64,000 bases of DNA from an uncultured Actinomycetes bacterium (GCA_963737445.1 CAVTSO010000001.1:398551-462550); one strand, 5' to 3'. Counted from the first letter of the stretch, positions 44,219 through 61,028 are shown. The notes: a model not told the origin generated them from the sequence alone. Program-made: numbers and translations.

Positions 44219-45154
44219 TTACTCGGCGCGGCGGTGCGTCCACCAGGCGCCGAACGCCATCATGAGCAGCCCGATCGCAGCAAAGAGCAGGGTCTCTCTG
44301 ATCTGCAGCGTCCAGAACGCGCTCGCCGGCTGGTACACGACATGGGAGATCGCGTTGGCACCGTTGCCGGGTACACCCAGCTGGGTGCTCGTGCCAAGCA
44401 CGCTGCCGCCACCGCTGCTGCTCTCCAACACCCGGCCGTCGACCGTCACGTTCTGGCTGATGATGCTCGCGTGCACGAGGTAGGCGGGAAGGTTCACACC
44501 GTGCCACGTCGCCTTGAGCGGGCTGAGCAGATGGTTTCGCAGCCAGAGATCATCGACCGCGCGCATCACGAAGTAGCCCACAAATGCGACCGTCAACGCG
44601 GCGGCCGGGCGCCGCCATAACGCTCCGACCGCGACCGCGAGTCCGAGCGCGAACAGCGCGTAGCCGATCGCAACCGTCCCCGTGGTGTCGAACGTGCCGG
44701 TGTCGAGGCCCCCGTTGAGGTTGGTCAGCGGGCCGCGCCACCATGTGACCAGCGCGATCAGAACGGCGGTCGCGACCACCGCGGACACGACCGGGAGCGC
44801 CAGCTTGACCGCGAGCCAGCGGCGGCGGGTGATGCTCTGCGTCCAGACCAGCCGATAGGTGCCCTGCTCGAGCTCGAGGATGAACGGCGCGGCGAGCAGC
44901 ACGCCGATCAGACCTGGGACGAGCGTGAACCAGTTGGCGATGAAGTTGAGTGACTGGAACCGGGCCTGGAAGTCGTTGATCCGCTGCATGCAGGACTGCC
45001 CGTCGCTGTGCCCGAGGCACGAGCCGAGGTCGTTGGCGTGATACGAGTTGGCCATCGAGATCCCGGTCGGGATCAGGAGCACCGCGATCAGCGCGAGGAT
45101 GCCGACCGCGACAAGCATCTCGGTGCGCTGCAGACGCCACGCAAGCCAGGTCAT
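44219..45154 (-). CDS. ABC-2-type transporter permease
   Basis: 311 aa with 6 TM helices, overlapping the upstream ATPase gene by 4 nt. Confidence 0.7.
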   Translation of the reverse strand: MTWLAWRLQRTEMLVAVGILALIAVLLIPTGISMANSYHANDLGSCLGHSDGQSCMQRINDFQARFQSLNFIANWFTLVPGLIGVLLAAPFILELEQGTYRLVWTQSITRRRWLAVKLALPVVSAVVATAVLIALVTWWRGPLTNLNGGLDTGTFDTTGTVAIGYALFALGLAVAVGALWRRPAAALTVAFVGYFVMRAVDDLWLRNHLLSPLKATWHGVNLPAYLVHASIISQNVTVDGRVLESSSGGGSVLGTSTQLGVPGNGANAISHVVYQPASAFWTLQIRETLLFAAIGLLMMAFGAWWTHRRAE

Positions 45155-46059
45155 CGGACGACCACCTCTGGTGCCGGCGTCGGCGCTGGGGAAGTACCGG
45201 GCGCATAGCCCATGTAGGCGAGCACCACCTCTTCGAGATCCACCTCGTACTGCTGCCAGCAGGTGTCGTAGACATGACCGTTGGCACGGACGAGTAGCGT
45301 CGTCTGGCGCTCGGTGTGGCTCTCGCGGATCACGTCGTGGACGCGCGCCACGTTGGCGGCGTCGGTCCGCGGACCGATCAAGAGACGATGGCTCTCGACG
45401 ATCCCCGCTATGTAGCCGACCAACTGCGTGGAGCCGGCCGCGAGCGTCACGAGATAGTCACAGACCCGCTCCAGCTCGGACACGATGTGCGACGAGAGAA
45501 CGACCGTGAGCCCGTCCTCTGCGACCGCCTCGAGCACGCCGCTCAGAAACTCGCGGCGAGCGAGCGGATCGAGCGAGGCGACCGGTTCGTCGAGGACGAG
45601 CAGCCGCGGCCGCTTGGCGAGCGCGAGGGTGAGGGCGACCTGCGCCTGCTGGCCGCCCGAGAGCTTACCCACCTTGTAGCCGGGATCCAGGCCGAGCCGC
45701 TCGATGCGCGCGCGGGCGTAGACCTCATCCCAGGTCGGATTGAGCCTGCGCCCGAGCGTCAGCGTCTCGGCAACGGTCAGGTTGCGGTAGAGCGGGTGAT
45801 CTTGCGCGACAAACCCGAGCCGCTGCAGAGCTTCGGCGCCATCGTCCCGCGGCGCGCGGCCGAGCACCTCCACCGTGCCCTTGGTCTCGGTCGCCAGGCC
45901 GGATATCAGGTGCAGGAACGTCGTCTTGCCGGCGCCGTTGGGTCCGACCAACGCGGTCACCGCGCCCTCCGGGATCTCGAGCGTGCAGTCGTGCAGCGCC
46001 CACTTCTGGCCAAATCGCTTGCCCAGCCCGTCCGCGTGAATCGCAGCCGTCGTGCTCAC
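45151..46059 (-). CDS. ABC transporter ATP-binding protein
   Basis: GTG 46059. Walker A GPNGAGKTT, signature LSGGQQ and Walker B LLVLDEP. Confidence 0.9.
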   Translation of the reverse strand: MSTTAAIHADGLGKRFGQKWALHDCTLEIPEGAVTALVGPNGAGKTTFLHLISGLATETKGTVEVLGRAPRDDGAEALQRLGFVAQDHPLYRNLTVAETLTLGRRLNPTWDEVYARARIERLGLDPGYKVGKLSGGQQAQVALTLALAKRPRLLVLDEPVASLDPLARREFLSGVLEAVAEDGLTVVLSSHIVSELERVCDYLVTLAAGSTQLVGYIAGIVESHRLLIGPRTDAANVARVHDVIRESHTERQTTLLVRANGHVYDTCWQQYEVDLEEVVLAYMGYAPGTSPAPTPAPEVVVR

Positions 46060-46060
46060 G

Positions 46061-46459
46061 TCATGCCACCACCCTCGATCGCACAGGCGGCCGCACCGCC
46101 TCGGCGAAGAGCGCCGCCATCGCTTCGTCATCGAGCCCTACCCCACGGGCCGACGTCACCCAGCGCTCAAGCGACGCACGCAGGTTCTTCAGCCCATCCG
46201 ACGGTGGAAGCTCCGGATTCGCAGCCACAAACGTCCCCACTCCACGCTTGCCCTCGACCAGCCCCTCCATGTCGAGCTGGCGGTAGGCGTGCAGCACCGT
46301 GTTGGGGTTGATCGTGAGGCTCGCAACCACTTCCTTCACGGTCGGCAACTGATCGCCGGGGCGCAGCATGCCGAGCCGGATCGCATGGCGCACCTGCTGC
46401 ACCAGCTGCAGGTATGCGGGCACTCCCGAGCGGCTATCCAGGTGGAATTCGATCACCAA
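46061..46459 (-). CDS. GntR-family (YtrA-like) transcriptional regulator
   Basis: 132 aa. LRPGDQLPTVKEVVASLTINPNTVLHAYRQLDMEGLV. First gene of the GntR-ABC operon. Confidence 0.85.
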   Translation of the reverse strand: MVIEFHLDSRSGVPAYLQLVQQVRHAIRLGMLRPGDQLPTVKEVVASLTINPNTVLHAYRQLDMEGLVEGKRGVGTFVAANPELPPSDGLKNLRASLERWVTSARGVGLDDEAMAALFAEAVRPPVRSRVVA

Positions 46460-47042: not shown

Positions 47043-47762
47043 CGCGTGTCCTCCTCCGACGAGCCGCGCCGCCTGTGGACACAGGGCGTCCAACCCGACC
47101 ACCATGGTCTCTGGGGGGCCCTGCTCAGAATGATAGAACGCTCGCCGGAAAGGCTGGCATTTCATGGGAAAGCCTCGCATTTGCAGGGCTTTCCGTTAGC
47201 CGATCTCCAAGCGGGATTCTTGGGACGGGCGAGGCGAACCCAGGCGGGTTTTCGCATGGCTATGCTAAAATGGCGACCCCGACGCGGTCGCCGAAGGCCG
47301 CCAACCGGTGTGCTCGTGATGCCTCGGTGTGCCTCGCCGAGGCCGGTCGACTTTCCAGCCCCGATGCCGCCCGAACCCCTGACGGATAGACCGGCGGACA
47401 ATCTTCGGGATGACCACAGTAACCCCCCACCCAGACCCGTTGCCGGTGAGCGGTGCCCGCCGTGAGCAACCCGTGATCGAGAGCTCGATTAGCTTTGGGG
47501 AGTTCTGATCTCGACCTACGGCGCCCGAAGCTCGTTCGCAGCACGCTCCCGTTCTGGGTCGTGAACGCATTTCGTGATGGGTGGCCGCCACTTGTCTTGC
47601 TGCAACAGAGGATCTACATCGGCGTGGGTGCCACGAAGAATGACGTTTGTGCACGGTCGACGACCTACACGCCACGCTCGCGCGAGCCAGGAGAGATCTA
47701 CCGCCGCTCGGGCAGACCGATTGGTCTTCAGCTCTGCAAGCGCATGAACCCATGCGTTGGTA

Positions 47763-47786
47763 GGTTCGAACCCCGGCGCCGCTCCA
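47763..47786 (+). other. tRNA 3'-end-like fragment (T-loop, 3' T-stem, 3' acceptor strand, CCA)
   Basis: GGTTCGAA-CCCCG-GCGCCGC-T-CCA. The upstream sequence cannot complete a T-arm or an acceptor stem, so this is not a whole tRNA. It resembles an integrase att-site remnant. Confidence 0.35.
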
Positions 47787-47850
47787 CTTAGAAGCCCTGC
47801 AAACCGGTCAGGATGGTAGGAGAGTTCGGGCACGGAAAACGCCAGCGGCT

Positions 47851-48474
47851 CTAAGCGGTGTAGGCGAGCGCGGCGCGGCCCTCGCTGACCCCGTAGTAGA
47901 CAATCACGAACCCCGCGAGTGGGTCGGCCCACCACCAGCCCAGTGTCGCGTTCAACACCAGGCCGAGCAACACGGCACTGGCGAGGTAGCCGTCGATCAT
48001 CGTCACGCGCGCCTCGGTCGTAAGTACCGGGTTGCCGAGTGCTCGCCCGGTGCGGGCCTTGCCGGCCGCCAGCGCGAACATCGCGACGACGGTGAACGTC
48101 AGCCACGTGATCCCCACGCGCGAGGGATTCGGGTGGGAGGCGGTTGCCACCACGTAGCCGGATTGGATGGTGATGTAGACGGCGAGCGCAATGAAAGCGA
48201 CGCCGATGATCCGCATCGCCTGTCGCTCGCGCCCCTCGTCGACTCCTCGAAGCTGCCAGATCACGACCGCTGATGCCAAGATCTCGATCACTGAGTCCAA
48301 GCCGAACCCGGCCAATGCGACAGATCGCGCAGCCACCGCGGCCGCCAACACGACCACGCTGCCCACCACGTTCCAGCCAAGCGTCGTGTACTCCAGATGC
48401 AGACCGCGGCGAAGCAGCTTCGAATACGCGCTGCGTGATGGCGTCATCTCCAGCCAGTCGGAGGGTCGGAGCAC
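47851..48474 (-). CDS. cation-efflux (CDF-like) membrane-domain protein
   Basis: LEYTTLGWNVVGSVVVL...FGLDSVIEILASAVVIWQL. Six TM helices and no cytoplasmic CDF domain. The start may be ATG 48447. Confidence 0.6.
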   Translation of the reverse strand: MLRPSDWLEMTPSRSAYSKLLRRGLHLEYTTLGWNVVGSVVVLAAAVAARSVALAGFGLDSVIEILASAVVIWQLRGVDEGRERQAMRIIGVAFIALAVYITIQSGYVVATASHPNPSRVGITWLTFTVVAMFALAAGKARTGRALGNPVLTTEARVTMIDGYLASAVLLGLVLNATLGWWWADPLAGFVIVYYGVSEGRAALAYTA

Positions 48475-48728
48475 CGCTCATGCTGGCTGCTTGGCAGCCG
48501 CCGTCGTCGTGCACCTCGCCGCGCCACGCCGCGAGGCCCTCGCGCCGCCGCCCGTGCACCGAGCGTCGAGGTCAGAAGGTTCGGCAAGAGCGCCGTCGGT
48601 ACCTCGTCCCCCATGTCAGATAACAAGCTCGCCAGGCCAATCCCCGCCACTCCGCGGGTCATCCACCCGCGCTTCGGCTGGTCGTGCTCCTGTTCGCGAA
48701 TCTCCGCCATCGATGATTCTTCCATCAT
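48444..48728 (-). pseudogene. MFS transporter, N-terminal fragment only
   Basis: The ATG overlaps the stop of the upstream MutS-like gene (ATGA at 48725-48728). GVAGIGLASLLSDMGDEVPTALLPNLLTSTLGA is a typical first-TM region of an actinobacterial MFS. The frame decays after about 60 aa and the CDF-like gene begins. Confidence 0.4.
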
Positions 48729-50311
48729 GCGCCCCCTGACCCGCGGCCGATGGGCGGCAGCTGGGTCACTGTGTGTTCCGGGGCGGCGGGCTGCTTGCGG
48801 GGTGGCTCCGTGGAGCTGGTCGCGGCCGCCGCGAAGATGCGGCGGTAGGAGTCTTGGCCGTGGCTGGTAGGGAGTGGCGGGCCGGGCGTCACCCGGAAGG
48901 TTCGGGTGCCGTCGGACAGCCGTTCGGCGCGCAGGAACCGTGCGCTCTCGATCTTCTGGCGGTAGAGGCTGTCTGCGAGGTCGTAGAGGTGGGTGACGAC
49001 GTAGACCTTCACGCCGACGTCGAGCATCGCGTGGATCACCTGCCGCGCGATCTCGGAGCCTTCACGCTCGTTTGTGGCGGCGAACGACTCGTTGCACAGC
49101 AGCAGGCATGCGGGCGTGATCTGGTCGGCGATATCGCTCATCCGGTGCAGCTCTTCATCGAGCTTGCCCTGCGTCATGGTTGGATCCTCTTCCCGCTTGA
49201 AGTGAGTGAAGACCGCGTTCACAACGCTCGCTTGGTAGGTCTCGGCGGTGACGTACATTCCTGCCTGCATCATCAGCTGGGCCAATCCGAGGCTGCGCAG
49301 GAACGTCGACTTTCCGCCCTGGTTGGCGCCGGTGATGAGCATCAGCCGGGTGCCGTCGGCGTCAATGTCGTTGCCCACGATCGATGCGCTGAGGTGGAAG
49401 GCGAGCGCGGCATCGTAGAGCGAGCGCGCAGACGTATGCTGGGATGAGGTTGGTTCGGGCGTCGGGAAGCAGGTGGGGAGCTGTTTCGCGGTGAGTTGCT
49501 CGTGCAAGTTCAGGCAGCCGACGTAGAAGGCGAGTTCGGCTCGCAGCGTTTTGCAGAAGCTGAGCACGTGATCGGTCGCTTGGGCGAGCGCGTTGGCGAC
49601 GTGGTTGACGCCTCGGCCGCGCAGTTCGGCGAGCGCCTGCATTCCGTACTCGTCTCGGTCTGCGATCGTGAAGCTGTAGCCTGCTCGCCCCGGCGCGGTG
49701 ATGCGCTCGATAAGGCGGCGCGGTTGCGGCTTTCGCAGGACGAAGTTCGTGCCACGGTTGGCTCTGCCCAGCGTCGCGCTGATAAGCGTACCGTCGCGGA
49801 AACGCATCTGCTTGAGCTGGTGATCGATGGTCTGCAGGTAGGCGTCGTCAAGGTCGCGCTGGAGGGTCGCGAAGAGTTCGGTGAACGCTTGTGAGCAGAA
49901 CGCGGAGCTGTGGTCGTCGGCGATTCGCCGAAGCTCTCGCAGGACGTCGGTGAGCATCTGCAGCATGCCGACGGACTTCTGCAAAACCGAGTCGGGAGAG
50001 TCGCGAAACCAGAAGAACCTGGCGTCGCGCTTGGTATCGACGCCTTTGACCGCCAGGGCGTAGAGCTGACGAATGACCGTGGGATGCTCGAGACAGTCGG
50101 CCAGAGCCCGTTGGCGGTAGCGGATCGCGTCGGGGTCGGTCAGCCCGAGCAGCAGGCCGCTCCGCGCGACGCTGCGCAGGTAGTCGTCGCCGCGGGCCAT
50201 CGCATCGTAGAGCGTGGGGAGTTCGAGATCCCGCTCCAGCGCATCGGCGTTTGCGGGAAGCTGCGCCTCGAGGTCAAAGTCACGATCGGGGTGCATCAGG
50301 TATGCCTTCAT
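48725..50311 (-). CDS. MutS-family ATPase (domain V only), paralog B
   Basis: 528 aa. Walker A ITGANQGGKSTFLRSLG, Walker B LLLCNESFAATN, MutS-type TQGKLDEELHRM and VVTHLYDL. No mismatch-binding or nuclease domain is recognisable. Confidence 0.8.
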   Translation of the reverse strand: MKAYLMHPDRDFDLEAQLPANADALERDLELPTLYDAMARGDDYLRSVARSGLLLGLTDPDAIRYRQRALADCLEHPTVIRQLYALAVKGVDTKRDARFFWFRDSPDSVLQKSVGMLQMLTDVLRELRRIADDHSSAFCSQAFTELFATLQRDLDDAYLQTIDHQLKQMRFRDGTLISATLGRANRGTNFVLRKPQPRRLIERITAPGRAGYSFTIADRDEYGMQALAELRGRGVNHVANALAQATDHVLSFCKTLRAELAFYVGCLNLHEQLTAKQLPTCFPTPEPTSSQHTSARSLYDAALAFHLSASIVGNDIDADGTRLMLITGANQGGKSTFLRSLGLAQLMMQAGMYVTAETYQASVVNAVFTHFKREEDPTMTQGKLDEELHRMSDIADQITPACLLLCNESFAATNEREGSEIARQVIHAMLDVGVKVYVVTHLYDLADSLYRQKIESARFLRAERLSDGTRTFRVTPGPPLPTSHGQDSYRRIFAAAATSSTEPPRKQPAAPEHTVTQLPPIGRGSGGA

Positions 50312-51903
50312 CGGCCGATGCGGCTCCTCAGCCGCTCAGAGGAGAGCCCGTACTTGTCGGCCAGGGCGGCCGCATAGGCGCGGCCGTCGGCCGGCCGGCG
50401 GACGATCTTGAATGTGCGCCGCGTCGGATCGTCGGAAGCGACGGTCGCTACCAGACTCACCGTCTCCTCCCCCAGCCGCGACAGCTCATCGATAAAGGTG
50501 ACCCAAACGGTCGCACAGCCCACATCGACGATACGCCGCAGGACCTCGCTCCCCAAGTAGACGGCGTCGGCCAGGGTTGTCGACGCAAATACCTCGTTGA
50601 GCACCAGGATGCTGCGATCGGTCGCGTGCTCGAGGATTTCGCGCAGCCGCACGAGCTCGTTGTCCAGCCGGCCGCGCAATGTCGAGATGTCCTCCTCCTC
50701 CTCAAACAGCGTGAAAATGTGATCAGCGAGCACGAGCTGCGCTCGGCGTGCCGGAACAGGCACGCCGAGGCTGGCCAGATAGTGGAGTTGGCCGAACGAC
50801 CGCGCGAACGTGGTCTTGCCGCCCTGGTTTGGGCCGGTGACGACGAGGATCCGCTCGGCGCCGCGAAGCATGAAGTCGTTGGTGACGAGTGTCGAGCCGC
50901 CGCCGGCGAGCTTGGTCGCGAGGGCGATGTCGAAAGCGCCTTCGGCCGTAACGTCTCGCAGCTGGGTGGAGACGCTGGGATAACTAAAAGCAAGGTCCGG
51001 CGTCTGGAGCGTGTCCATGTACTCCAGGTATGCGAGGTAGAACTGCAGTTCACGGTCGAACCGGGTGATGCGCGGATCGGGGAATCCGGCCTGGCGGGTG
51101 CAGAACTCCCCGAGCGCGGCGAACTCAGTCGGAAAGAGGCGGCTGACGAGTTGCACGATCCGCGCTTCGACGTGGTCCATCGAACCGGAGTCGGGAACCC
51201 TCACCAGGTGATCCTCGGCGTCTCCCTGGCGGAACCGGGCAAACGTCTGTGCCACCTCGACGGTGTAGTCGGCCTCGCCGTCGTAGGCGCGAACGGTGAC
51301 ACGTCCACCCTTGATCCTCGTCGTGTACCTCACCCGTGCCAGGCCGTCGAGCACGTCGCGAACCTCGTGGACGAGGACCCCGAAACGATCGGATGAGCGG
51401 TATCCGGCGAGGTAGTCGCGCAGTGCGCAGAATCCCTGCGAGGTGAGGTCAACCACGGCCAGCCCGTCGGTCAGCCGGCTGACCGCGTCGCAGTAGATCG
51501 ATGCGGCATCAAGGAACCAGCGCTGCTTCTCCTGTGGGTATCGCTGCTTCTCGGCGAGGGCGAGGTACTGCCGCATGGTTCGCATGCTCTGGGCGAACCC
51601 GCTCACCGCGGCTCGGAGGGCATCCTGTTCGAGATCGCGGAACACGTCGTGTCGGGCGTAGACCGCTTGTGGGTCGTCGAGCGGCGTGTGGAAGAAGCGT
51701 TCGAGCGCGTACTCGTCCCGCCCGGCGACGATCCGGCGGACGACCTGATCCAGGTTCAGATCGGCGAAGCAGGCGGGCTCGAGCGGTTCGGCGTTACCCG
51801 ACTCGGAACTGCTGAAGAGGATGCTGTCGAACTCGGCGACGGGCGTCCCATCGGGGGGGACGGGCGGCTGCGAAGGGGTATCGAGGCGATCAGAACGCGT
51901 CAC
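50308..51903 (-). CDS. MutS-family ATPase (domain V only), paralog A
   Basis: 531 aa with a GTG start at 51903. Walker A VTGPNQGGKTTFARSFG, Walker B ILVLNEVFASTT, STLRGRLDNELVRL and WVTFIDEL. Its stop overlaps the paralog B start (ATGA). Confidence 0.8.
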   Translation of the reverse strand: MTRSDRLDTPSQPPVPPDGTPVAEFDSILFSSSESGNAEPLEPACFADLNLDQVVRRIVAGRDEYALERFFHTPLDDPQAVYARHDVFRDLEQDALRAAVSGFAQSMRTMRQYLALAEKQRYPQEKQRWFLDAASIYCDAVSRLTDGLAVVDLTSQGFCALRDYLAGYRSSDRFGVLVHEVRDVLDGLARVRYTTRIKGGRVTVRAYDGEADYTVEVAQTFARFRQGDAEDHLVRVPDSGSMDHVEARIVQLVSRLFPTEFAALGEFCTRQAGFPDPRITRFDRELQFYLAYLEYMDTLQTPDLAFSYPSVSTQLRDVTAEGAFDIALATKLAGGGSTLVTNDFMLRGAERILVVTGPNQGGKTTFARSFGQLHYLASLGVPVPARRAQLVLADHIFTLFEEEEDISTLRGRLDNELVRLREILEHATDRSILVLNEVFASTTLADAVYLGSEVLRRIVDVGCATVWVTFIDELSRLGEETVSLVATVASDDPTRRTFKIVRRPADGRAYAAALADKYGLSSERLRSRIGR

Positions 51904-51924
51904 TGGCTTCCACCGTTGGGGTCG

Positions 51925-51975
51925 CGGTAGAAGCCATCAGCCCTCTCGGGCGGTTTCAGGCGGGCCTCATCGCCT
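51925..51975 (-). promoter_or_regulatory. fluoride riboswitch (crcB motif) aptamer
   Basis: The minus strand reads AGGCGAUGAGGCCCGCCUGAAACCGCCCGAGAGGGCUGAUGGCUUCUACCG. Block for block this matches the well-studied Thermotoga fluoride aptamer GGGCGAUGAGGCCCGCCCAAACUGCCCUGAAAAGGGCUGAUGGCCUCUACUG (recalled from memory). A TACATT -10-like hexamer (51987-51982) lies 6 nt upstream, and the GTG of the MutS-like gene lies 21 nt downstream. Confidence 0.85.
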
Positions 51976-52274
51976 GCTCACAATGTACCCGACGGGAGCG
52001 CTAACCGATGACCATCACCGGACAGCTCGCACGCCGGATCGACCGGGCAGCTGGGGATATCGACACCCGAAGCCGTCCCAGCCGGGGCGTCCACCTCGGC
52101 TGTCGAAAGCCCTCCAAGCTGCATTCGCCCGGTGCGCGATTACCATCACGACACCGGAGGCAAGGCGGTTCGCCTCGTCGAACCCAGCCGCCATGGCGCG
52201 CCGGCCCCGCGGCGTCGGTTCCACCACCACCATGACGGAGCGCCGTCTCCGATCCGCACAGGCGAGGGGTAGGC

Positions 52275-52517
52275 ATGGGACAGCCGGACGACCAGCACCG
52301 TGAGCAGGTGGCGATTCTGTGGTCAGGTGCCGCATTCATGGCCGTGGCGCTGATCGGCCATCTGCTGCTTCCGCCCGTCGACGTCCTCTGGATCGTGATC
52401 GGGGGCTTTGGCCTTCTCGCCGTTCGCGCAGGCCTTCCTCCGGCGGCGCTGAACGGCCGGTCACGGCCCTTACGGCTCGGCTATAGTGGGCGCGGACGCG
52501 ATGAGGCTCGCGCTTAA
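52275..52517 (+). CDS. possible small 2-TM membrane protein
   Basis: GAGGGG lies 5 nt before the ATG, and two hydrophobic helices are present. However, the 3' end overlaps the promoter and aptamer of the plus-strand riboswitch, so the ORF may be spurious. Confidence 0.3.
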   Translation: MGQPDDQHREQVAILWSGAAFMAVALIGHLLLPPVDVLWIVIGGFGLLAVRAGLPPAALNGRSRPLRLGYSGRGRDEARA

Positions 52518-52546
52518 CCGCCCCCGTGGCTGATGGCCTCTACCAC
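52488..52546 (+). promoter_or_regulatory. fluoride riboswitch (crcB motif) aptamer
   Basis: GGGCGCGGACGCGAUGAGGCUCGCGCUUAACCGCCCCCGUGGCUGAUGGCCUCUACC has the same conserved blocks (GAUGAGGC, AACCGCC, GGCUGAUGGCCUCUAC). A TATAGT -10-like hexamer (52482-52487) lies immediately upstream. Confidence 0.85.
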
Positions 52547-52650
52547 TTTGGGTAGACCACGCCACGAAAGGAGCAGCGGTTGGAGCATATGCGAGTCGCA
52601 ACGGCCGACCGGCGATCACTGACGACGGCACCGATCCGTAGGCTGGCGTC

Positions 52651-53692
52651 GTGAACGTCCCGGCGCTGAAGCTGACCCTGTATTTCAACGAGACGCTCCG
52701 CTGCCGCGGTCATCTCGCGGCGGACCTGCTGTTGGACATGTTCGAGCACGCAGACGTCATGGCCAGCGTGCTCCTCCGCGGCATCGAGGGATTCGGTGCT
52801 CACCACCGACTCCACACCGACCGCTTCGAAAACGCGAGCCTGAACCAGCCGATCGTCGCCGTCGCCATGGATCGTCAGGATCGCATCGAACACTGGCCTC
52901 TCGGGTCGACGAGATCCTCGAAAGCGGGCTGGTCACCACCGAACGCGCCTGGCTGATCGGACAGCCCAGCGAAGGCGTCCTGCCGGCGGTCGCGTACGAC
53001 TCGGTCAAGCTGACCGTCTACTGCGGCCGGGCCGACCGCGTCTGGTGGACTGCCGTCCTACCGGGCGATCATCGATCATCTCCGCGCGAGTGGTGTCGAG
53101 GGAGCGACGGTGTTCCTGGGAGTGGACGGAACGGTGCATGGCCGCCGAGAGCGCGCCGCCTTCTTCTCGCGCAACCGCGAGGTGCCATTGATGATCGTCG
53201 CCGTCGGCCAACCCGACGCCGTCGCACGAAGCCTGCCGGGGATCCGCCGGCTCGCGGACAGGCCGATCATCACCGTCGAGGGTATCCAGATCTGCAAACA
53301 GGACGGCGAGCTGATCGCCGCTCCCACCCCGGCGCCGGGTCTCGGAGCGCGGCGGCATCTGGCGGAAGCTGATGATCCACGCCGCCGGCGACACCCACGT
53401 CGGCGGCGAATCGCTGCACTATCAGCTGGTCGAGCAGCTGCGCCGCATCGACGCGGCCGGCGCGACGTCACTTCGCGCGATCTGGGGGTATCGCGGTCAG
53501 GCGCCTGCCCACGGCGACTCGGTCTGGTCGATCAGACGCACGAGCCCTGTGGTCACGATCGTGATCGACCGCGATGAACGGGTCGGCGCGACCTGGGAGG
53601 TCATCGATCTGCTCACCCGTGAGGCTGGTCTGGTGACCAGCGAGCTCGTCCCCGCCCACCGCGCTCTGGCAGCGGAGGCCAGTGCCCGATGA
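52651..53692 (+). pseudogene. three tandem DUF190 (PII-like, CrcB-associated) domains in one gene; frame interrupted three times
   Basis: D1 LKLTLYFNETLRCRGHLAADLLLDMFEHADVMASVLLRGIEGFG. D2 VKLTVYCGRADRV/GGLPSYRAIIDHLRASGVEGATVFLGVDG. D3 RKLMIHAAGDTHVGGESLHYQLVEQLRRIDAAGATSLRAIWGYRG. There are no stops between domains in the corrected reading. Frame changes are at about 52897, 53040 and 53355. Confidence 0.7.
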
Positions 53693-53708
53693 CCGGTGAG
53701 GGACGCTC

Positions 53709-55337
53709 GTGCCGTATCTGAGCGACTGGGTGATCCAGCTGTTTCAGGTCGGAACGGTGCTCGTGCTGGGCCCGCTGGTGATGGGCATCATCGCCCGCGC
53801 CGAGGCCATCGTCCAGATGCGTCGTGGACCGCGGCTGCTCCAGCCCTACTACGACATCGCCAAGTTCTTCCATAAGGAGACGGTGCTTCCGGGCGACGCG
53901 GGCGTCGTCTTCCGCGCGGCGCCCTACGCCTCCTTTGCCTGCTACATGACGGTGCCGCTGCTGATCCCGGTGCTGACCAACTTCCCGCTCCAGCTCGGCT
54001 ACATGGGCGACATCCTGGGCGGCGGCTTCATCCTAGCCCTGGCCAGCTTCTCGGTCTCCCTGGCCGCGCTCGACACCGGCACCCCCTACACCCAGCTCGG
54101 CTCGAGCCGCCTGCGAAGCTTCGGCGCGCTCGGGGAGCCGACGATCCTGGTCGTCATCTTCACCGTGGCGCTGATCACCCACACCGACCTGCCCTACGCC
54201 CTGGTCAAGACGCTGGAGGGATCTGCCGCCGAGATCACCCGCCCCGCGCATCTGCTGGCCGCAGCTGCCTTCTTCCTCGTCATCCTCGCGGAGACCGGCC
54301 GAATCCCGATCGAAAGCCACGGCTCCACGCTCGAGTTCGGCATGATCGAGGAGGCGCGCACGCTCGAGCATTCCGGCCCCGGCTTCGCGCTGCTGCGATG
54401 GGGCTCGACTATGAAGCAGCTGATCCTGTTCGTGATCTTCCTGAACGTGCTCGTCGCACCCTGGGGCCTGGCCGCCGATCACCGCCTCGACCACGTCCTG
54501 CTCGCGATCGTGATCCTCTTCGCAAAGACGCTTGGGATCGGCCTTGTGATCGTGGTGATCGAGTCGGCCTACGCCAAGCTTCGGCTCTACAAGATTCCCG
54601 AGTTCACCGTCGCGGGCTTCCTGCTGGCTGTGCTGGCGGTGATCACGTTCGTCTTCCAGGAGAGCTTTCAGCCCGGTCAGCTGACCGTCTTTGCAGGCAC
54701 GGCGACCGTGATCGCGGTGGTCGTGCTGCTGCTCGAGTTCGTGATGCTTCGAAGCCAGGATGTCTGGGAGCTGCTTCGTCTCTACGGCCTGGCGTCGCTT
54801 CTGATCGGCGTGCTCGCCTTTTGCGCCGCCGCGACCGGCCACGACCGGGGGCTGTATGTGCTGGGCGCAGTCACGATCGGCTTCAAGGCCCTGCTCGTCC
54901 CCCTCGGCGTCGGGTTCCTCCTGCGCACACTGGAGGTGCCCGAGCGGGTGCCCTCCTCGATCAGCGCGCCTTCCGCAGTGCTTGCAGGCATCGTGCTTTC
55001 CGGCTTTGCGTTCTACACCCTGTCTCGCCTGAACCTGCCCGAGCCGGGAACCTTGCCGCTGGCGGCGTTGGCGGTCGCTATGGCGGCCGTCCTGGTCGCG
55101 TTCTTGCTCATGATCGTGCGGCCCTATGCGCCGTCGCAGCTGCTCGGATTCCTGGCCGTGGAAAACGGCGCGACGCTCGCGAGTCTTGTCGTCGCGCCCG
55201 GTCTCCCGCTGATCCTGGCGGTGCTGCTGCTGTTCGACGTGCTGATCGGCGTCGTCGTGTTCGTCGTGCTCGTCCAGTACCTGGCGATGGAGCGCAGCTC
55301 CGTCACTACCCACGTCCTTGACAGGTTGCGGGGCTGA
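53709..55337 (+). CDS. fused HycD/HyfC-like (NuoH-type) and HyfE-like (NuoK-type) membrane subunit
   Basis: 542 aa with a GTG start. The N-terminal roughly 310 aa carry RRGPRLLQPYYDIAKFFHKE...ETGRIPIE (NuoH/HycD family). The C-terminal roughly 220 aa form a multi-TM HyfE-like region ending AVENG...LLLFDVLIGVVV. Confidence 0.8.
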   Translation: MPYLSDWVIQLFQVGTVLVLGPLVMGIIARAEAIVQMRRGPRLLQPYYDIAKFFHKETVLPGDAGVVFRAAPYASFACYMTVPLLIPVLTNFPLQLGYMGDILGGGFILALASFSVSLAALDTGTPYTQLGSSRLRSFGALGEPTILVVIFTVALITHTDLPYALVKTLEGSAAEITRPAHLLAAAAFFLVILAETGRIPIESHGSTLEFGMIEEARTLEHSGPGFALLRWGSTMKQLILFVIFLNVLVAPWGLAADHRLDHVLLAIVILFAKTLGIGLVIVVIESAYAKLRLYKIPEFTVAGFLLAVLAVITFVFQESFQPGQLTVFAGTATVIAVVVLLLEFVMLRSQDVWELLRLYGLASLLIGVLAFCAAATGHDRGLYVLGAVTIGFKALLVPLGVGFLLRTLEVPERVPSSISAPSAVLAGIVLSGFAFYTLSRLNLPEPGTLPLAALAVAMAAVLVAFLLMIVRPYAPSQLLGFLAVENGATLASLVVAPGLPLILAVLLLFDVLIGVVVFVVLVQYLAMERSSVTTHVLDRLRG

Positions 55338-55339
55338 CG

Positions 55340-56815
55340 ATGAGCTGGTTGCTGGTCGCCATGATCGTCGTGCCGCTTGCAGTCTCGATCGCCGCGCTTG
55401 TTGTCCATCCTGGCGTTGCCCAGATGCTGACGGTCGCATCGGGCTGTGCGGCGCTGGGGATCGCCGTGCTGGCGGCGTTCGCCGTACGCGACGGAAGCAC
55501 GCTGCACGCCCTCGGAGGCTGGATCGGCCTGGATGCCCTCGGCGCGGTGTTTTTGTTGCCGACGGCGTTTCTGTACGCCGTCTCCGCCGTCTACTCGGTT
55601 GGCTACATGCGCGGCGAGAGCCGCGAAGACTACGCCCCCTTCGCGCGCCGCTACACCGTCTATCTGAACCTGTTCTGCCTGACGATGCTGCTCGTGCCGC
55701 TGGCCACCGACTTCGCCAGCCTCTGGATCGCTGTCGAGCTGACCACGATCATCTCCGCGCTGCTGGTGGCACTCGACCGCACGGACGCCGCTCTCGAAGC
55801 TGCCTGGAAGTACGTGCTGATCGCCTCCGCCGGGTTGGGCATCGCACTGATGGGTCTGATCATCCTCTATGCAGCAGCCACCGCGCCGCTCGGGTCCGAC
55901 CATGTGCCCCGCTTCGCCGACTACACACGCGTCTCGGCCAGCCTGCACCCCGACATCGTCAAGCTCGCCTTCCTGCTGGCCGTGGTCGGCTTCGGAACCA
56001 AGGCCGGCTTCGCGCCCATGCACACCTGGCTGCCCGACGCACACTCAGAAGCGCCGACGCCGGTATCGGCGCTCCTGTCTGGGTCGCTCCTCGCCAACGC
56101 GTTCTACGCCATCCTGCGCTTCTACCAGGTGGCCGTGGCCACCGGCGGACACGCCTTCCCCGACCGGGTGCTGGTCGTCTTCGGCGTTGTCTCGTTGGCT
56201 GTCGCTGCTGTCTTTGTCATGCGCCAGGAGAACTACAAGCGTCTGCTTGCCTACTCGTCGATCGAGCACGTCGGCGTGATCGCCGTGGGCGTCGGCTTCG
56301 GCAGCCCGCTCGCCATCTTCGGAGCGCTGTTGCACGTCGTCAGCCACGCCGCGGCCAAGGGTCTTGCCTTCCTTGGCGCGGGGTCGATCCTACGCCGCTA
56401 CGACACCAAGCTCGTCGGCAACGTCGGCAACGCCGTCGGTGTCCTCCCGTGGAGCGGTCCGATGTTCCTGTTCGCCGGTATCGCTCTCTCCGGCCTGCCG
56501 GTGTCAGGCGTCTTTCGAAGCGAGTTCCAGGTCGTCACGGCCGGGTTCGCCAACCCCTCCTACGTTGCCGTCGCACTGCTGATCATCCTCGTGAACCTCG
56601 CCTTCTTCGGCGTGATGTGGCACATCGGGCGGATGACGCTGTCCGCCGACACCCCCGTAGCCCCCACGCACACCGGCGAGACCAGTCGATGGATGGTCGC
56701 CGCCATGATCGGCTGCCTGGTGGTGCTGGTCGGCTTGGGCATCCATGTTCCCGGCAGCCTCTCGGATCTGCTCGGACACGCGGCCAGCAGTCTCCGCCAG
56801 GGAGTCGCCAGATGA
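55340..56815 (+). CDS. NuoM/N-type antiporter-like subunit (HyfF/HyfD-like)
   Basis: 491 aa. WIAVELTT, GFGTKAGFAPMHTWLPDAHSEAP and KRLLAYSSIEHVG. Confidence 0.85.
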   Translation: MSWLLVAMIVVPLAVSIAALVVHPGVAQMLTVASGCAALGIAVLAAFAVRDGSTLHALGGWIGLDALGAVFLLPTAFLYAVSAVYSVGYMRGESREDYAPFARRYTVYLNLFCLTMLLVPLATDFASLWIAVELTTIISALLVALDRTDAALEAAWKYVLIASAGLGIALMGLIILYAAATAPLGSDHVPRFADYTRVSASLHPDIVKLAFLLAVVGFGTKAGFAPMHTWLPDAHSEAPTPVSALLSGSLLANAFYAILRFYQVAVATGGHAFPDRVLVVFGVVSLAVAAVFVMRQENYKRLLAYSSIEHVGVIAVGVGFGSPLAIFGALLHVVSHAAAKGLAFLGAGSILRRYDTKLVGNVGNAVGVLPWSGPMFLFAGIALSGLPVSGVFRSEFQVVTAGFANPSYVAVALLIILVNLAFFGVMWHIGRMTLSADTPVAPTHTGETSRWMVAAMIGCLVVLVGLGIHVPGSLSDLLGHAASSLRQGVAR

Positions 56816-58294
56816 GCGAGACCCGACAGATCCCGGATCAGCCGCACGATCCCTTCGTCTCGATCGGCGTTTCCGAGCAAGGCGACGCGTCTGCCGAAAC
56901 GAGGCTGAGCGTGCCGCTGGCCGACCTGGCGTCAGCGGCGGCCGAGTTGGCCCGCCAAGGCCGGTTTCTGACGCTCACCACGACCAACCGGCCGGGCTCG
57001 CTGCTGGTCGGCGTTCGCGATCCGCGGCGAGATCGTCGAGGTCGTCGCCACGGCGTCGGAAACGCGCTCCTACCCAGCAGTCTCGAGCGGGGTTCCAGCC
57101 GCCGGCTGGGCCGAGCGCGAGGCACGCGACGCCGCCGCGTTCCAGCCCGACGGGCTGCCCGACCCGCGGCCGTTCCTGAATCCCGACGTCGACGCCGTCG
57201 CCCCGCGCTTGGTCGGCGACGACGCGTTCGTGATGCCCTATGGCCCGGTGCGTTCCGGTGTCTTCGAAGCCATCCAGTTCATCATCGAGACCGGCGGCGA
57301 GGATGTTCCCCTGCTCGACGTCCGCACAGGATTCAAACATCGCGGCCTGGAACGGCGGATGGTCGGCCTGACCGCTCGCGACGGCGCGGTCGTCGCAGAG
57401 CGCGTTGCCGGCATCTCCTCGGTCGCCCATGCACTGGCCTGCTGCCAGGCGGTCGAGCGTGCGCTGGGCGTCACGCCCCCCCGGCGGGCTGAGCTGTGGC
57501 GTGCCGTGCACGCCGAGCTGGAACGCATCGCCAACCACCTGCACTGCGCCGCACAACTGGCCGAGACAACGGCGCTTCACCTCGGCGTCGCCCGGTTCGG
57601 GATCCTGAAAGAAGACGTGATGCGGCTGCGAGCCGAGCTCTGCGGCAACCGGTTCGGTCGCGGAGTCGTGATCCCCGGCGGCGTCACCGAGTTCGACGCC
57701 AACACGACCGACACGCTGATGGACGCGATCGAGCATCTCGACACCGACCTTCGCCGCGACCGGCGACTGCTGGTGGGGACCACATCCTTCACCGACCGGC
57801 TGTTCGGCACGGGTCACCTGCCGCGCGACCTGGCCGAACGCTACGCGGTCGTCGGCCCCGTCGCCCGCGGCTCCGGCGTCTCGACCGATGCCCGCTTCGA
57901 ACGACCCTACGGCGCCTACCGCCGCCTGGGCTGGCAACTGGTCACTCGGACCGCCGGCGACGCGATGGCACGCCTCGAGGTTCGCCTCGGCGAGATCACA
58001 CAGAGCATGCACATCATCCGCCAAGCGGTCGACGCGCTCAGGCGCACCGAACCAACTGTCGCCAGCCCGCTGCCGCCGGCCGACGGAGCGGCCTGGGGCT
58101 GGGCCGAAGCGGCGCAAGGCGAGGTGCTCTACCGCCTCGAGATCGACGCCGGTCGCATCCGACACGCGCACATCGCCTCGCCGTCGCTGCGCAACTGGCA
58201 GGTCTTCGCCCACTGCTTCCCACGCGACGTGCTGACCGACTTCGGCTTCATCGAACACAGCTTCCAACTCACGCCGGCCGGCGCGGATCGGTAG
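56812..58294 (+). pseudogene. HycE/HyfG-like (NuoC-NuoD fusion) 'large subunit' lacking all four Ni-Fe cysteines; one frameshift
   Basis: The ATG overlaps the previous stop (ATGA). The frame changes at about 57008 (GSLLV/AFAIRGEIVEVV). L1 reads ERVAGISSVAH where hydrogenases have ERxCGxCxxxH. The C-terminus reads SFQLTPAGADR* where they have DPCxxCxxR. Confidence 0.8.
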
Positions 58295-58299
58295 ACGGC

Positions 58300-59067
58300 A
58301 TGCTCGAATGGATCTGGAGAGGACTGCGAAAGGGACGGGTCACCAGCCGCTACCCCGACCAGCCCGAGCAGGCGCCGCAGCTCCTGCGCGGACGCATCAG
58401 CGTTCTCAACGCCGAGGGCGCCGACCCCGGCCTCGCCACGATCTGCCCGACCGGCGCCATCGCCGTCGAGGAGACGACCGTCAACGTCGACCGCGGCCGC
58501 TGCATCCTGTGCGGGGTCTGCGTCGAGCGCCACCCCGACCGATTCGCCTTCCACCCGGTCCACGAGACGGCCAGCCAGCATCGAGAAGCACTCTGGGTCC
58601 GCCCGCACGCCACGGCCACACCGAACGGAGCGGCACCGCCGCTGGGCCAGCGCTTCCCCGCGCTTCGCCGCTCGATCCACATCCGCCACGTCGATACCGG
58701 CTCTGACGGCAGCGAGGAGTGGGAGATCGCCGCGCTCACCAACCCCTACTACGATATGCAGCGGCTCGGCCTCTTCTTCACCGCCGCCCCCCGCCACGCC
58801 GACATCCTGCTCCTCACCGGCGTCGCCACCGCGGCGATGCGCGAACCGCTGTTGCGGACGTGGCAGACGATGCCTGACCCCAAGGCCGTTGTCGCGGTCG
58901 GCACCGACGCCTGCTCAGGCGGCCTCGCCGGACACAGCATCGGCGCCTCCGGAGTGGCCGGCCTTGTCCCCGTAGACGTGTTCGTGCCGGGCTCGCCGCC
59001 GACGCCGATCGCCATCCTCCACGGCCTGTTGCTCGCCGCGGGACTTCTGACGGAGAACACCGGATGA
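58300..59067 (+). CDS. fused HycF-like (ferredoxin) and HycG/NuoB-like 'small subunit', Fe-S ligands mostly lost
   Basis: 255 aa. Of the ferredoxin part only ICPTGAI and CILCGVCVERHP remain (4 Cys). The NuoB part reads HVDTGSDGSEEWE, GTDACSGG and PGSPPTP where the family has GSCNGCE, GACA and PGCPP. Confidence 0.8.
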   Translation: MLEWIWRGLRKGRVTSRYPDQPEQAPQLLRGRISVLNAEGADPGLATICPTGAIAVEETTVNVDRGRCILCGVCVERHPDRFAFHPVHETASQHREALWVRPHATATPNGAAPPLGQRFPALRRSIHIRHVDTGSDGSEEWEIAALTNPYYDMQRLGLFFTAAPRHADILLLTGVATAAMREPLLRTWQTMPDPKAVVAVGTDACSGGLAGHSIGASGVAGLVPVDVFVPGSPPTPIAILHGLLLAAGLLTENTG

Positions 59068-61028
59068 ACGCAACCCTGCTCGCCGCGCTCGCCCTGCTCG
59101 TCGCGGCCATCCCCGTCAGCTACCTGTCGCGCCGAGTCGCGATGGCGGCGTCGCTGCTCGCCGCGGTTTGCATGACCGTCGTCGGTTTCAGTGCGGCCGG
59201 CGCCTGGGGCACCGCACATGTCAGCCTCGGCGACTGGCTCGGCTTCGGCGAGACAACGCTGCGCGTCGACCGGCTGGCCGGCGTCTTCCTCGGCCTGGCA
59301 GGCCTGCTCGCCGTCTCCGTCACGCTCCGCTACCTGGAAGCGCGGCCGAGCCGAGTCGTCTGCGCGCTGCACGCCGCGCTGCTGCTCGCAGTGATCGCCG
59401 TCATCACCACCGATCAGGCCTTCGCCTTCCTCCTTGCCTGGGAGGCACTCACCGTCGTCATCTACCTGCTCGCAAGCGCCGACCGAACGCGCGCCGGGAC
59501 ACTGGTCTCCGGCTACCTGACCGGCGCGCTCAACAAGATCAGCGGCGCCGCGCTGCTGGCAGCGTTCGGGCTGCTGTATGGCTCCACGCACAGCCTCCGC
59601 TTCGCCGACTGGCACACCGCCGCCCTGTCGTCCAACACCCGCAACGCCGTCTTCGTCCTGCTGGTCGCCGGCTTCGCCGCCAAGATCGGCATCCCGCCGC
59701 TGCAAGCAGCCCTGCCGGCCAGCTATGAGGCGGCGCCCAGCCCCGCCTCGGCGACGCTCTCGATCGCCCTCGTCGGCGGCTTCTACGGCCTCTGGCGGCT
59801 GGTCTACGAAACGCTCGCCCCGGCCGCGCTGTGGTGGGGAGAGGCACTCCTGGTCATCGGCAGCATCACCGCCCTGCTCGGCATCATCTATGCGATCGCC
59901 CAAAGCGACATGCGCCGCTTCCTCGGCTTCTCAAGCGTCGAACACACCGGCATCACGCTGCTCGGCCTCGGCACAGCCCTGCTCGGACAAGCCACGCATC
60001 ACCGGGAGCTGATCGCCGCCGGCATCCTCGCCGCCACCCTCCACGTCATCGCCCACGCGATCGGAAAGACGCTCGCCCTGCTCTCCGCAGATCGCATCGC
60101 CGAGGCGACCGGCACCGCCAAGCTCGGGCCACTCGGCGGCCTCTCCCGGCACCTCCCCGCGTCGTCGGTCGGTCTGGGGCTGGCGACCGTCACCCTCGCC
60201 GCGCTGCCACCGTTCGGCGGCTTCGTCAGCGAATGGTTCACGCTCGAAGCGCTGCTGCAAGGCTTCCGCGTCGACAACACGCTCGCTCGGCTGCTGATGG
60301 CGCTGGCCGCGGCCGCGCTCGCGCTGACCGCAGGGCTGGGGCTGCTCGCCTTCGCCAAACTGTTCGGCTCGACCATCCTCGGCCAAGCACGCTCCCGGCT
60401 GCCCAAGCCGGTCGAATCCGGCCTCCCCATCGGCCTGGCACTGCTCGCCACCTGTGCGCTGCTGCTGGGACCGATCGCACCATGGGAGATCCGGCTGCTC
60501 GGAACCGCGCTCACCCCGACCCTCGGCTTCGACCCCGCCACAACCGCGATCAGCCATCCACTCGTCCTGGGCCCCGTCTACTCCGGCTTCTCCGTGCTCG
60601 CCCCCACCTGGCTCTCGATCGCCCTACCCAGCTTCGCAATCGCAGCGGCACTGATCGTCAGGCTGGCGCGCCGCTCACCGGCGAGGCGCGCAGCACCATG
60701 GGTCTGTGGCACCTCACTCCCACCCGAGCTCGTGCAGTACACCCCCTCCGGATACTCCAACCCGATCCGGGTCGTCCTGCGCAGCGTGTACGGCTTCCGC
60801 CGCCGCGTGGTGCCGATCCCCGGCGAACCCAACCCTGGCCGGTTCGAGTTGCAGACCTCGATGGTCGCGCTCGTTGAAGACCGCATCTATCGCCCGCTCA
60901 CCGACACCACGCTTGCGATCACCGCCCGGGGCCGCAAGCTGCAATCGGGCCGGCTCGGCTCCTACCTCGCCTACATCCTGATCGTGCTTCTGATCGCCCT
61001 CGCCCTGATACCAACCCTCACCCACTGA
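59064..61028 (+). CDS. NuoL-type antiporter-like subunit (HyfB/HycC-like)
   Basis: 654 aa with about 16 TM helices. WEALTVVIYLL, FAAKIGIPPLQAALP and RRFLGFSSVEHTG. The C-terminal extension is typical of HyfB. Confidence 0.85.
   Translation: MNATLLAALALLVAAIPVSYLSRRVAMAASLLAAVCMTVVGFSAAGAWGTAHVSLGDWLGFGETTLRVDRLAGVFLGLAGLLAVSVTLRYLEARPSRVVCALHAALLLAVIAVITTDQAFAFLLAWEALTVVIYLLASADRTRAGTLVSGYLTGALNKISGAALLAAFGLLYGSTHSLRFADWHTAALSSNTRNAVFVLLVAGFAAKIGIPPLQAALPASYEAAPSPASATLSIALVGGFYGLWRLVYETLAPAALWWGEALLVIGSITALLGIIYAIAQSDMRRFLGFSSVEHTGITLLGLGTALLGQATHHRELIAAGILAATLHVIAHAIGKTLALLSADRIAEATGTAKLGPLGGLSRHLPASSVGLGLATVTLAALPPFGGFVSEWFTLEALLQGFRVDNTLARLLMALAAAALALTAGLGLLAFAKLFGSTILGQARSRLPKPVESGLPIGLALLATCALLLGPIAPWEIRLLGTALTPTLGFDPATTAISHPLVLGPVYSGFSVLAPTWLSIALPSFAIAAALIVRLARRSPARRAAPWVCGTSLPPELVQYTPSGYSNPIRVVLRSVYGFRRRVVPIPGEPNPGRFELQTSMVALVEDRIYRPLTDTTLAITARGRKLQSGRLGSYLAYILIVLLIALALIPTLTH

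Follow-up and report, generated by a model that had tools for sequence, protein, structure and literature searches.

A MutS4A-MutS4B gene pair with asparagine-type Walker B motifs behind a fluoride riboswitch in an uncultured actinomycete

Introduction

Why would a bacterium place a pair of MutS-type ATPases behind a fluoride riboswitch? The question is raised by a 64,000-nucleotide stretch of DNA from an uncultured Actinomycetes bacterium (GCA_963737445.1, CAVTSO010000001.1:398551-462550; here called the window, with positions counted from its first letter), which carries two tandem mutS-like genes, MutS4A and MutS4B, on its minus strand. An initial annotation, made from the sequence alone, had described them as paralogues with an unusual Walker B motif, no mismatch-binding domain and a fluoride riboswitch ahead of them.

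The crcB motif was later shown to be a fluoride riboswitch. Among the genes reported behind it by Weinberg et al. in 2010 were mutS, genes for K+/Cl- transport and formate hydrogen lyase genes (PMC2864571). The exporters and replacement enzymes of this fluoride regulon have clear roles, while its MutS-type member is left without one. Here we describe the gene pair, its control region, its relatives in other genomes and its predicted folds. With a rough probability of 0.6, the two genes form an operon for a fluoride-induced, asymmetric heterodimeric clamp of the MutS type, which acts on a nucleic-acid substrate and lacks mismatch-binding and nuclease domains.

Results

The gene pair fits the MutS4 subfamily

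Both open reading frames, of 531 and 528 codons, and the ATGA by which they overlap were found as first annotated (Table 1), and the description as tandem, translationally coupled MutS paralogues stands. The only Pfam domain detected is MutS_V (residues 354-490 of MutS4A, E 5.6e-20; residues 324-450 of MutS4B, E 4e-18). No Pfam match to MutS_I, II, III or IV, Smr, KOW or nuclease domains was obtained for either protein, which bears out the originally reported lack of mismatch-binding, Smr and nuclease domains. The NCBIfam models for MutS1 (58-84 bits against cut-offs of 480-642) and mutS2 (65-68 bits against 400) matched only the ATPase part of the two proteins, and the KamC model matched only the ATPase core of MutS4B (64.9 bits, E 6e-18, cut-off 300). 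The Walker A and Walker B motifs are present as initially quoted, and the signature region reads STLRGRLDNEL in MutS4A and TMTQGKLDEEL in MutS4B. The two proteins can be aligned only in their C-terminal ~220 residues (32% identity, E 3e-28; A against B ~25-32%), the N-terminal ~300 amino acids being divergent, again as first stated. MutS4B ends in a tail of ~40 amino acids (residues 485-528) that is predicted to be disordered.

The pair is not a new class. It fits a subfamily named in 2007, when Lin, Nei and Ma (NAR 35:7591; PMC2190696) described MutS4A and MutS4B as adjacent genes with the MutSac domain only. A hallmark is the overlap between the A stop codon and the B start codon; the subfamily was seen in two archaea, Thermoanaerobacter tengcongensis and Chloroflexus, and had not been studied for function (PMC2190696). 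Kim et al. (2017; Front Microbiol 8:2578; PMC5742357) met the MutS4 signature again in 15 species of Mycobacterium. The pair of M. yongonense lies in a 13-gene island "from non-mycobacterial actinomycetes", which also holds enolase, a hydrogenase subunit and an NADH-dehydrogenase complex (PMC5742357). With the subfamily, the window pair shares the MutS ATPase as sole recognisable domain, the tandem arrangement of ancient paralogues, the stop/start overlap and a patchy distribution by lateral transfer that includes Thermoanaerobacter, Chloroflexi and actinobacteria; with the M. yongonense island it shares NADH-dehydrogenase/hydrogenase-like genes. Judged by these defining features and by orthologues in the same taxa, the sequences fit MutS4A and MutS4B. 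Specific to the window are the disordered tail of MutS4B and what looks like a truncated major facilitator superfamily (MFS) gene coupled to it; nothing essential differs.

The subfamily name and the occurrence of mutS genes behind the crcB/fluoride motif were already known. What the present analysis adds is the extent of the fluoride linkage, the finding that Asn-Glu is invariant, the His/Phe and charge asymmetries between the two proteins and the recognition of their lever and clamp domains. The parts of the published MutS4 descriptions available to us make no mention of a fluoride riboswitch, an Asn-Glu Walker B motif or an A/B histidine asymmetry. Two other assignments were rejected: a novel family consisting of domain V only, as MutS4A and MutS4B are named in the literature and their predicted folds contain lever and clamp, and an anti-phage defence system, as PADLOC returned only marginal matches at the P-loop level (E 1e-4 to 3e-3).

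MutS4A and MutS4B are kept together in many phyla

A scan of one genome per species for MutS4A similarity gave 80 related loci, which are referred to below by L numbers where needed. They are found in Thermoanaerobacter/Thermoanaerobacterium, Chloroflexota, Desulfobacterota, Nitrospirota, Meiothermus, Bacteroidota, Verrucomicrobiota, Acidobacteriota, Alpha- and Gammaproteobacteria and Actinomycetes, more than 10 phyla in all. Identity to the window proteins is 45-53% for the A orthologues and 45-56% for the B orthologues. MutS4A and MutS4B occur together in 79 of the 80 loci, with B directly after A where the sequence suffices; the sole exception is L017, a metagenome-assembled genome in which B is apparently truncated. 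The junction could be scored in 71 cases, and 59 of these show the 4-nucleotide overlap. Together, these two observations make a heterodimer, as already suggested by the initial annotation, the natural reading of the pair.

In Thermoanaerobacter sp. (L001) the orthologues are 49-50% identical and have the same layout. The nearest named relatives are found in Gaiellaceae metagenome-assembled genomes (~61%) and on a plasmid of Rubrobacter radiotolerans (55.6% identity). As more than 7,600 database homologues exist for each of the two proteins, their sequence features are not due to chance. The pair is also carried by 45 plasmids, 21 of them conjugative. Their hosts include clinical Enterobacteriaceae (Klebsiella, Enterobacter, Citrobacter and Salmonella), with conjugative plasmids among them, and also Rhodococcus, Burkholderia, Rubrobacter and Mycobacterium. 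One Anaerolineales locus (L034, 3788-9530) has two consecutive pairs in the order A-B-A-B, a tandem duplication of the whole module.

A fluoride riboswitch precedes MutS4A

The riboswitch ahead of the genes was confirmed by Rfam cmscan, which matches the full-length model in the 5' leader of MutS4A with 51.7 bits (E 2.1e-11; gathering score 34); our own covariance model R1 gives 61.1 bits. The 3' end of the aptamer lies 17 nucleotides before the GTG start codon of MutS4A, on the same strand. Folding of the leader RNA predicts a helix of 12 base pairs, present in both the minimum-free-energy and the centroid structure, between UGGCUUCUACCG (51925-51936) and CGGUGGAAGCCA (51904-51915). The former is the 3' strand of the aptamer and its pseudoknot, the latter a Shine-Dalgarno-like stretch abutting the GUG at 51903. 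Since the aptamer 3' strand forms the pseudoknot when ligand is bound, the simplest model for the leader would be a translational ON switch. A scan of positions 47600-52700 for consensus promoters and terminators gave no match and is uninformative for a high-GC organism.

Linkage to fluoride is found in most related loci

Of 15 loci run against Rfam at its gathering threshold, 7 have a riboswitch shortly before A. A covariance model of our own, built from 11 aptamers found upstream of A, was run on all 80 loci; it matches on the same strand and not more than 400 nucleotides upstream of the A match in 50 of them. In 13 more loci the riboswitch lies further upstream with other regulon genes in between, bringing the total to 63. 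The fluoride link that had been noted for the window therefore extends to its orthologues elsewhere.

Clustering of the flanking open reading frames in the 80 loci yielded as recurrent neighbours enolase (23 loci), an MFS transporter located after MutS4B or before MutS4A (22), a dynamin-family GTPase (19), CrcB (12), a HEAT/zinc-ribbon protein (11), DUF190 or DUF190-CBS proteins (10), a Na+/H+ exchanger (8) and Usp (7). Pyrophosphatase-like, HAD-like and Hyf/NADH-dehydrogenase-like proteins also recur. Together they make up the classic fluoride regulon described in PMC11139923; the MutS4 loci have in common with the regulon (RF01734) the upstream aptamer and the CrcB, enolase, pyrophosphatase, Na+/H+ antiporter, Usp, DUF190 and formate-hydrogenlyase-like neighbours. 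In all, about 75 of the 80 loci belong to gene clusters for fluoride resistance, and only about 5 have neither a riboswitch nor fluoride-regulon neighbours.

On the plasmid pY546 of Enterobacter roggenkampii (L082, NZ_CP032915.1, 91-104 kb), a riboswitch heads an operon of a cation:proton antiporter, Usp, MutS4A and MutS4B. It adjoins a cluster of a DHHA2-domain protein (in the ppaC position), usp, eno, phosphoglycerate mutase and crcB, and an arsenic-resistance cluster lies nearby.

Several further observations were made in these loci. Between two and six fluoride aptamer matches fall within ~9.5 kb in L004, L030, L038, L070, L076, L078 and L079, including back-to-back divergent pairs like that of the window and tandem pairs (L076 7107-7303). 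The dynamin-family GTPase, of ~570 amino acids, is often paired with the small HEAT-repeat/zinc-ribbon protein (11 loci) and in some loci stands directly behind a riboswitch; it was seen in, among others, L002, L004, L007, L010, L019, L024, L025, L038, L049, L050, L070 and L079. To our knowledge, no bacterial dynamin has been given a role in fluoride stress. In Anaerolinea thermolimosa (L069, 3317-3691, minus strand), a sub-threshold match to the cspA thermoregulator RNA (66 bits against 78) overlies a cold-shock-protein-like gene just upstream of MutS4A.

Both ATPase sites carry an invariant Asn-Glu motif and differ at the H-loop

Conservation was read from aligned orthologues, 82 for A and 70 for B. 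Neither set shows any variation in Walker A, its lysine included. At Walker B, asparagine is found in 82 of 82 A sequences (N436) and 69 of 70 B sequences (N407), and the catalytic glutamate that follows is present throughout (E437, 82/82; E408, 70/70). The initial annotation had taken the shared Asn-Glu for a conserved feature and not a lesion, which these counts confirm. Asp-Glu stands at the aligned position of MutS2 and Taq MutS sequences with solved structures.

The two proteins differ at the H-loop, whose histidine corresponds to His728 of E. coli MutS. It is kept in MutS4B, where His441 (Thr-His, in the motif THLYDL) is found in 70 of 70 sequences, whereas in MutS4A the position is held by Phe470 (Thr-Phe, in TFIDEL) in all 82 sequences. 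Hence the THxxxL-like motif initially ascribed to both proteins exists in MutS4B but not in MutS4A. As MutS4A lacks the H-loop histidine, the two ATPase sites are unequal.

The same change of the Walker B aspartate to asparagine was introduced into E. coli MutS as D693N by Lebbink et al. in 2010 (PMC2857095). In the ADP-bound crystal of this variant (PDB 3k0s) the Mg2+ site is empty; its affinity for ATP is ~ten-fold lower and its Km for ATP ~five-fold higher, while the basal ATPase activity is unchanged at 10 mM Mg2+ and ~ten-fold up at higher Mg2+ (PMC2857095). D693N thus carries the Walker B change of MutS4 as an engineered one, with loosened Mg2+ coordination, basal ATPase activity kept and a strong dependence on Mg2+; it is deleterious to mismatch repair in MutS1, whereas in MutS4 the asparagine is the invariant wild-type state of both subunits. 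MutS can be trapped by metal fluoride, as in the MutS-ADP-BeF3-DNA complex (PDB 1nne). By analogy with D693N, the invariant asparagine may loosen the coordination of Mg2+ and could disfavour trapping as ADP-Mg-fluoride.

The predicted folds contain lever and clamp domains

AlphaFold2 models of MutS4A and MutS4B have predicted local distance difference test (pLDDT) scores of 83.3 and 83.1 and predicted template modelling (pTM) scores of 0.82 and 0.80, respectively. Both show a helical N-terminal half, a beta-hairpin, a low-confidence loop and a long return helix, followed by the ATPase. Foldseek aligned both models over ~500-570 columns with known structures (E 1e-16 to 1e-18): MutS4A matched MSH2, E. 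coli MutS and the MutS2 core over its full length (E ~1e-17), and MutS4B likewise MutS2, MSH3 and MutS. Against the MutS2 structure 7vuf, the values are E 6.7e-17 over 526 aligned columns with a template modelling (TM) score of 0.62, target-normalised, for MutS4A and E 6.8e-18 for MutS4B. The predicted folds begin at the lever domain, and both proteins are too short for domains I and II of MutS1. In the models, lever and clamp domains of the MutS type make up the N-terminal ~300 amino acids of both proteins. When PDB sequences were searched with a profile, only the ATPase part was aligned, and lever and clamp were recovered by fold comparison alone. The initial label "domain V only" consequently holds for Pfam but not at the level of the fold, and the comparison with MutS families that had been proposed has a two-sided outcome, with NCBIfam matches for MutS1 and MutS2 restricted to the ATPase part and below their cut-offs, and a fold like that of the MutS2 core.

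MutS2 (7vuf of Thermus thermophilus; 7qv3, the RqcU of B. subtilis) is the best solved relative of MutS4 in both sequence and fold. It likewise has no mismatch-binding and connector domains and consists of lever, clamp and an ABC-type ATPase. It differs in forming homodimers, in its C-terminal KOW and Smr nuclease domains and in an Asp-Glu Walker B motif, whereas MutS4 is a presumed heterodimer with Asn-Glu and neither KOW nor Smr. A second asymmetry between A and B appears in the clamp. The clamp-equivalent segment (residues 168-226 in MutS4B) has a mean net charge of +5.4 in B, with conserved Arg/Lys residues, and is slightly acidic in A (-1.5).

The surrounding fluoride island

The MutS4A-MutS4B operon forms one arm, on the minus strand, of an island of ~14 kb (Table 1). 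The start codon of a 94-amino-acid open reading frame overlaps the stop codon of MutS4B. It has no Pfam match; in tblastn it shows 51% identity to the MFS family of the island (E 2e-8) and looks like a truncated MFS transporter gene by sequence, since only residues 30-76 of that family are kept. The next gene encodes a membrane protein of 207 amino acids whose match to the Cation_efflux family (cation diffusion facilitator, CDF) spans the transmembrane part only, with no cytoplasmic domain. As this match is marginal and the gene is not a recurrent MutS4 neighbour elsewhere, it was rejected as an operon member.

The other arm is a plus-strand operon (window 52488-62000) headed by a second, divergent riboswitch, which is context and lies outside the MutS4 operon. 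Its genes represent the "formate hydrogen lyase" class of fluoride-regulated genes. A relative with 83% identity has the same divergent layout with two riboswitches. The GntR and ABC genes beside the island have no evident link to it.

Table 1. Features of the MutS4 operon and its surroundings, in window coordinates.
Feature	Position	Strand	Basis
ABC-2 membrane protein, adjoins island	44219-45154	minus	
ABC-transporter ATPase, adjoins island	45151-46131	minus	
GntR-family regulator, adjoins island	46061-46459	minus	
207-aa membrane protein, marginal Cation_efflux (CDF) match	47851-48474	minus	Pfam, 27.5 bits vs 26.6
94-aa open reading frame, candidate MFS gene remnant	48444-48728	minus	ATG overlaps MutS4B stop (second ATGA); tblastn
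MutS4B	48725-50311	minus	528-aa open reading frame, ATG start, Pfam MutS_V
MutS4B H-loop His441, kept	48989-48991	minus	sequence
MutS4B Walker B LLCNESF, N407-E408	49088-49093	minus	sequence
MutS4B Walker A GANQGGKST, G328-T336	49304-49330	minus	sequence
ATGA overlap, MutS4A stop / MutS4B start	50308-50311	minus	read from sequence
MutS4A	50308-51903	minus	531-aa open reading frame, GTG start, Pfam MutS_V
MutS4A H-loop position, Phe470, not His	50494-50496	minus	sequence
MutS4A Walker B LVLNEVF, N436-E437	50593-50598	minus	sequence
MutS4A Walker A GPNQGGKTT, G357-T365	50809-50835	minus	sequence
Predicted expression platform, 12-bp helix	51904-51936	minus	RNA folding of leader
Fluoride riboswitch aptamer (crcB motif, RF01734), 5' leader of MutS4A	51921-51983	minus	Rfam cmscan
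Second fluoride riboswitch, divergent, heads neighbouring operon	52488-52549	plus	Rfam, 39.3 bits, E 2.2e-7
DUF190 (two genes)	52651-52956, 53372-53692	plus	Pfam
NADHdh / HyfC-like	53709-55337	plus	Pfam
Proton_antipo_M (two genes)	55340-56815, 59064-61028	plus	Pfam
Oxidored_q6, NuoB-like	57496-59067	plus	Pfam
CrcB	61484-61939	plus	Pfam

Discussion

A fluoride-induced heterodimeric clamp would work as follows. Without fluoride, the 3' strand of the aptamer would pair with the Shine-Dalgarno region. Fluoride would lock the aptamer pseudoknot and free the Shine-Dalgarno region, MutS4A would be translated, and coupled translation would supply MutS4B in a 1:1 ratio. The two proteins may then assemble into an asymmetric heterodimer like MSH2-MSH6 or MSH4-MSH5, in which the A site, having no histidine, would be slow or regulatory and the B site catalytic, and in which B would contribute the one basic jaw of the clamp. 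The asparagine would loosen the Mg2+ coordination as in D693N and make the ATPase cycle strongly Mg2+-dependent; a site of this kind may be less easily trapped as ADP-Mg-fluoride, so that the machine could work at high fluoride. Nucleic acid would be the most likely substrate. The fold of the family and the basic jaw make DNA, in the form of branched or stalled intermediates, the default choice. The heterodimer would serve as a clamp or sensor driven by ATP and would not be a nuclease.

The eukaryotic heterodimers offer a parallel for this arrangement. MSH2-MSH6, MSH2-MSH3 and MSH4-MSH5 also consist of two diverged MutS paralogues with unequal ATPase sites, and an eukaryotic MSH protein gives a full-length fold match (8r7v_A, TM score 0.60, query-normalised). 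The MSH proteins of mismatch repair differ in having domains I and II, and Asp-Glu and histidine in both subunits, and they have no link to fluoride.

A number of observations weigh against a fluoride-induced clamp on nucleic acid. No riboswitch was found in the sequence fetched for 17 of the 80 loci, and our own model gives 11 of the 50 near matches less than 30 bits. Seven weak near matches were rechecked in Rfam E-value mode, which confirmed six in the same place (23-53 bits) and left that of L069 unconfirmed. Genes for DNA repair, recombination, helicases, nucleases or MutL are not among the recurrent neighbours in the 80 loci. On pY546, MutS4B is split and annotated as two fragments. The island dynamin-family GTPase keeps the Mg-coordinating aspartate of its DxxG motif, and an Asp-to-Asn "fluoride hardening" as a general rule for the nucleoside triphosphatases of the island was rejected on this ground. 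The only published effect bearing on function is weak: M. smegmatis with the MutS4 operon of M. yongonense gave ~2.5-fold more rpoB recombinants, without fluoride. Finally, a six-gene operon of Enterobacter cloacae FRM (Liu 2017) confers high fluoride resistance without MutS4AB, and MutS4 is not among the listed or induced genes of the FRM island GI3. In at least one system, MutS4AB is therefore dispensable for high fluoride resistance, and its contribution is accessory or context-dependent.

A different and rather unlikely reading keeps fluoride and gives up DNA repair. Here, MutS4AB would be a fluoride-stress machine whose Asn-Glu motifs and one-sided loss of histidine make the ATPase responsive or resistant to Mg-fluoride, with clients such as stalled ribosomes or poisoned Mg-enzymes. 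If true, this would be a second non-DNA job of the MutS fold after MutS2, and the pair would be the first known case of an ATPase tuned to fluoride by evolution.

The kinship with MutS2 suggests a particular client, the ribosome, although we consider this improbable. In the manner of MutS2 (RqcU), whose MutS-type ATPase clamp splits collided ribosomes, MutS4AB would clear ribosomes that stall through the energy loss under fluoride or through poisoned translational GTPases. The closest solved sequence relative of MutS4A is the MutS2 core 7vuf (E 5e-17 with the single sequence, 2.9e-33 with a profile), both models superpose on MutS2, including the ribosome-bound B. subtilis protein (7qv3), MutS4 shares with MutS2 the absence of domains I and II, and no DNA-metabolism genes lie nearby. 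However, MutS2 is recruited to collided ribosomes by KOW and Smr according to PMC10897456, and MutS4A and MutS4B have neither. Ribosome-related genes are not recurrent neighbours, and the idea is entirely inferential.

The patchy distribution shaped by lateral transfer, the carriage by 45 plasmids, 21 of them conjugative, the recombinant yield in M. smegmatis and the dispensability in E. cloacae FRM could all be accounted for if the pair modulated homologous recombination for the integration or spread of its island or plasmid instead of protecting the cell. We hold this to be no more probable than a role at the ribosome, as it leaves unexplained both the control by fluoride riboswitches in most loci of more than 10 phyla and the invariant Asn-Glu motif, and many loci are chromosomal with flanks that contain no mobility genes.

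Still less probable is the reactivation of proteins, in which the pair would strip Mg-fluoride-phosphate complexes off enolase or pyrophosphatase. The analogy is with KamC, the NCBIfam reactivase ATPase of lysine 5,6-aminomutase, whose model matches MutS4B as well as the MutS2 model does; a mutS-family gene occurs within lysine-fermentation clusters, enolase is the commonest neighbour of MutS4, and pyrophosphatase-like genes recur. Yet the match to KamC is confined to the ATPase core and stays far under its 300-bit cut-off, enolase and pyrophosphatase belong to the general fluoride regulon and are also found without MutS4, and a lever and clamp with a basic jaw fit a nucleic-acid ligand better. 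Decay of drifting paralogues, with the Walker B asparagine and the missing histidine as inactivating lesions, could appeal to the impaired mismatch repair of E. coli MutS with a mutated Walker B aspartate (PMC2857095), to the split MutS4B on one plasmid and to the apparently truncated B of L017, but is virtually excluded by conservation, as both proteins are full length, 45-56% identical across phyla and represented by more than 7,600 homologues each, the Walker A lysine, catalytic glutamate and asparagine are invariant in the alignments, and E. coli D693N keeps its ATPase activity.

With the fluoride-induced heterodimeric clamp as the preferred reading, MutS4A and MutS4B are among the few members of the fluoride-riboswitch regulon to which no role has been assigned, and they belong to the MutS3-5 branches, which have been functionally blank since 2007. 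Most related loci, across phyla and also on conjugative plasmids of Enterobacteriaceae, show the link to fluoride, and both subunits carry a natural counterpart of the well-studied D693N change of MutS. The annotation "DNA mismatch repair protein MutS" may mislead, and in actinobacteria without MutS/MutL such genes should not be taken as evidence of mismatch repair. In its place, the present analysis puts concrete questions: how the ATPase depends on fluoride and Mg2+, and whether the pair binds DNA or the ribosome.

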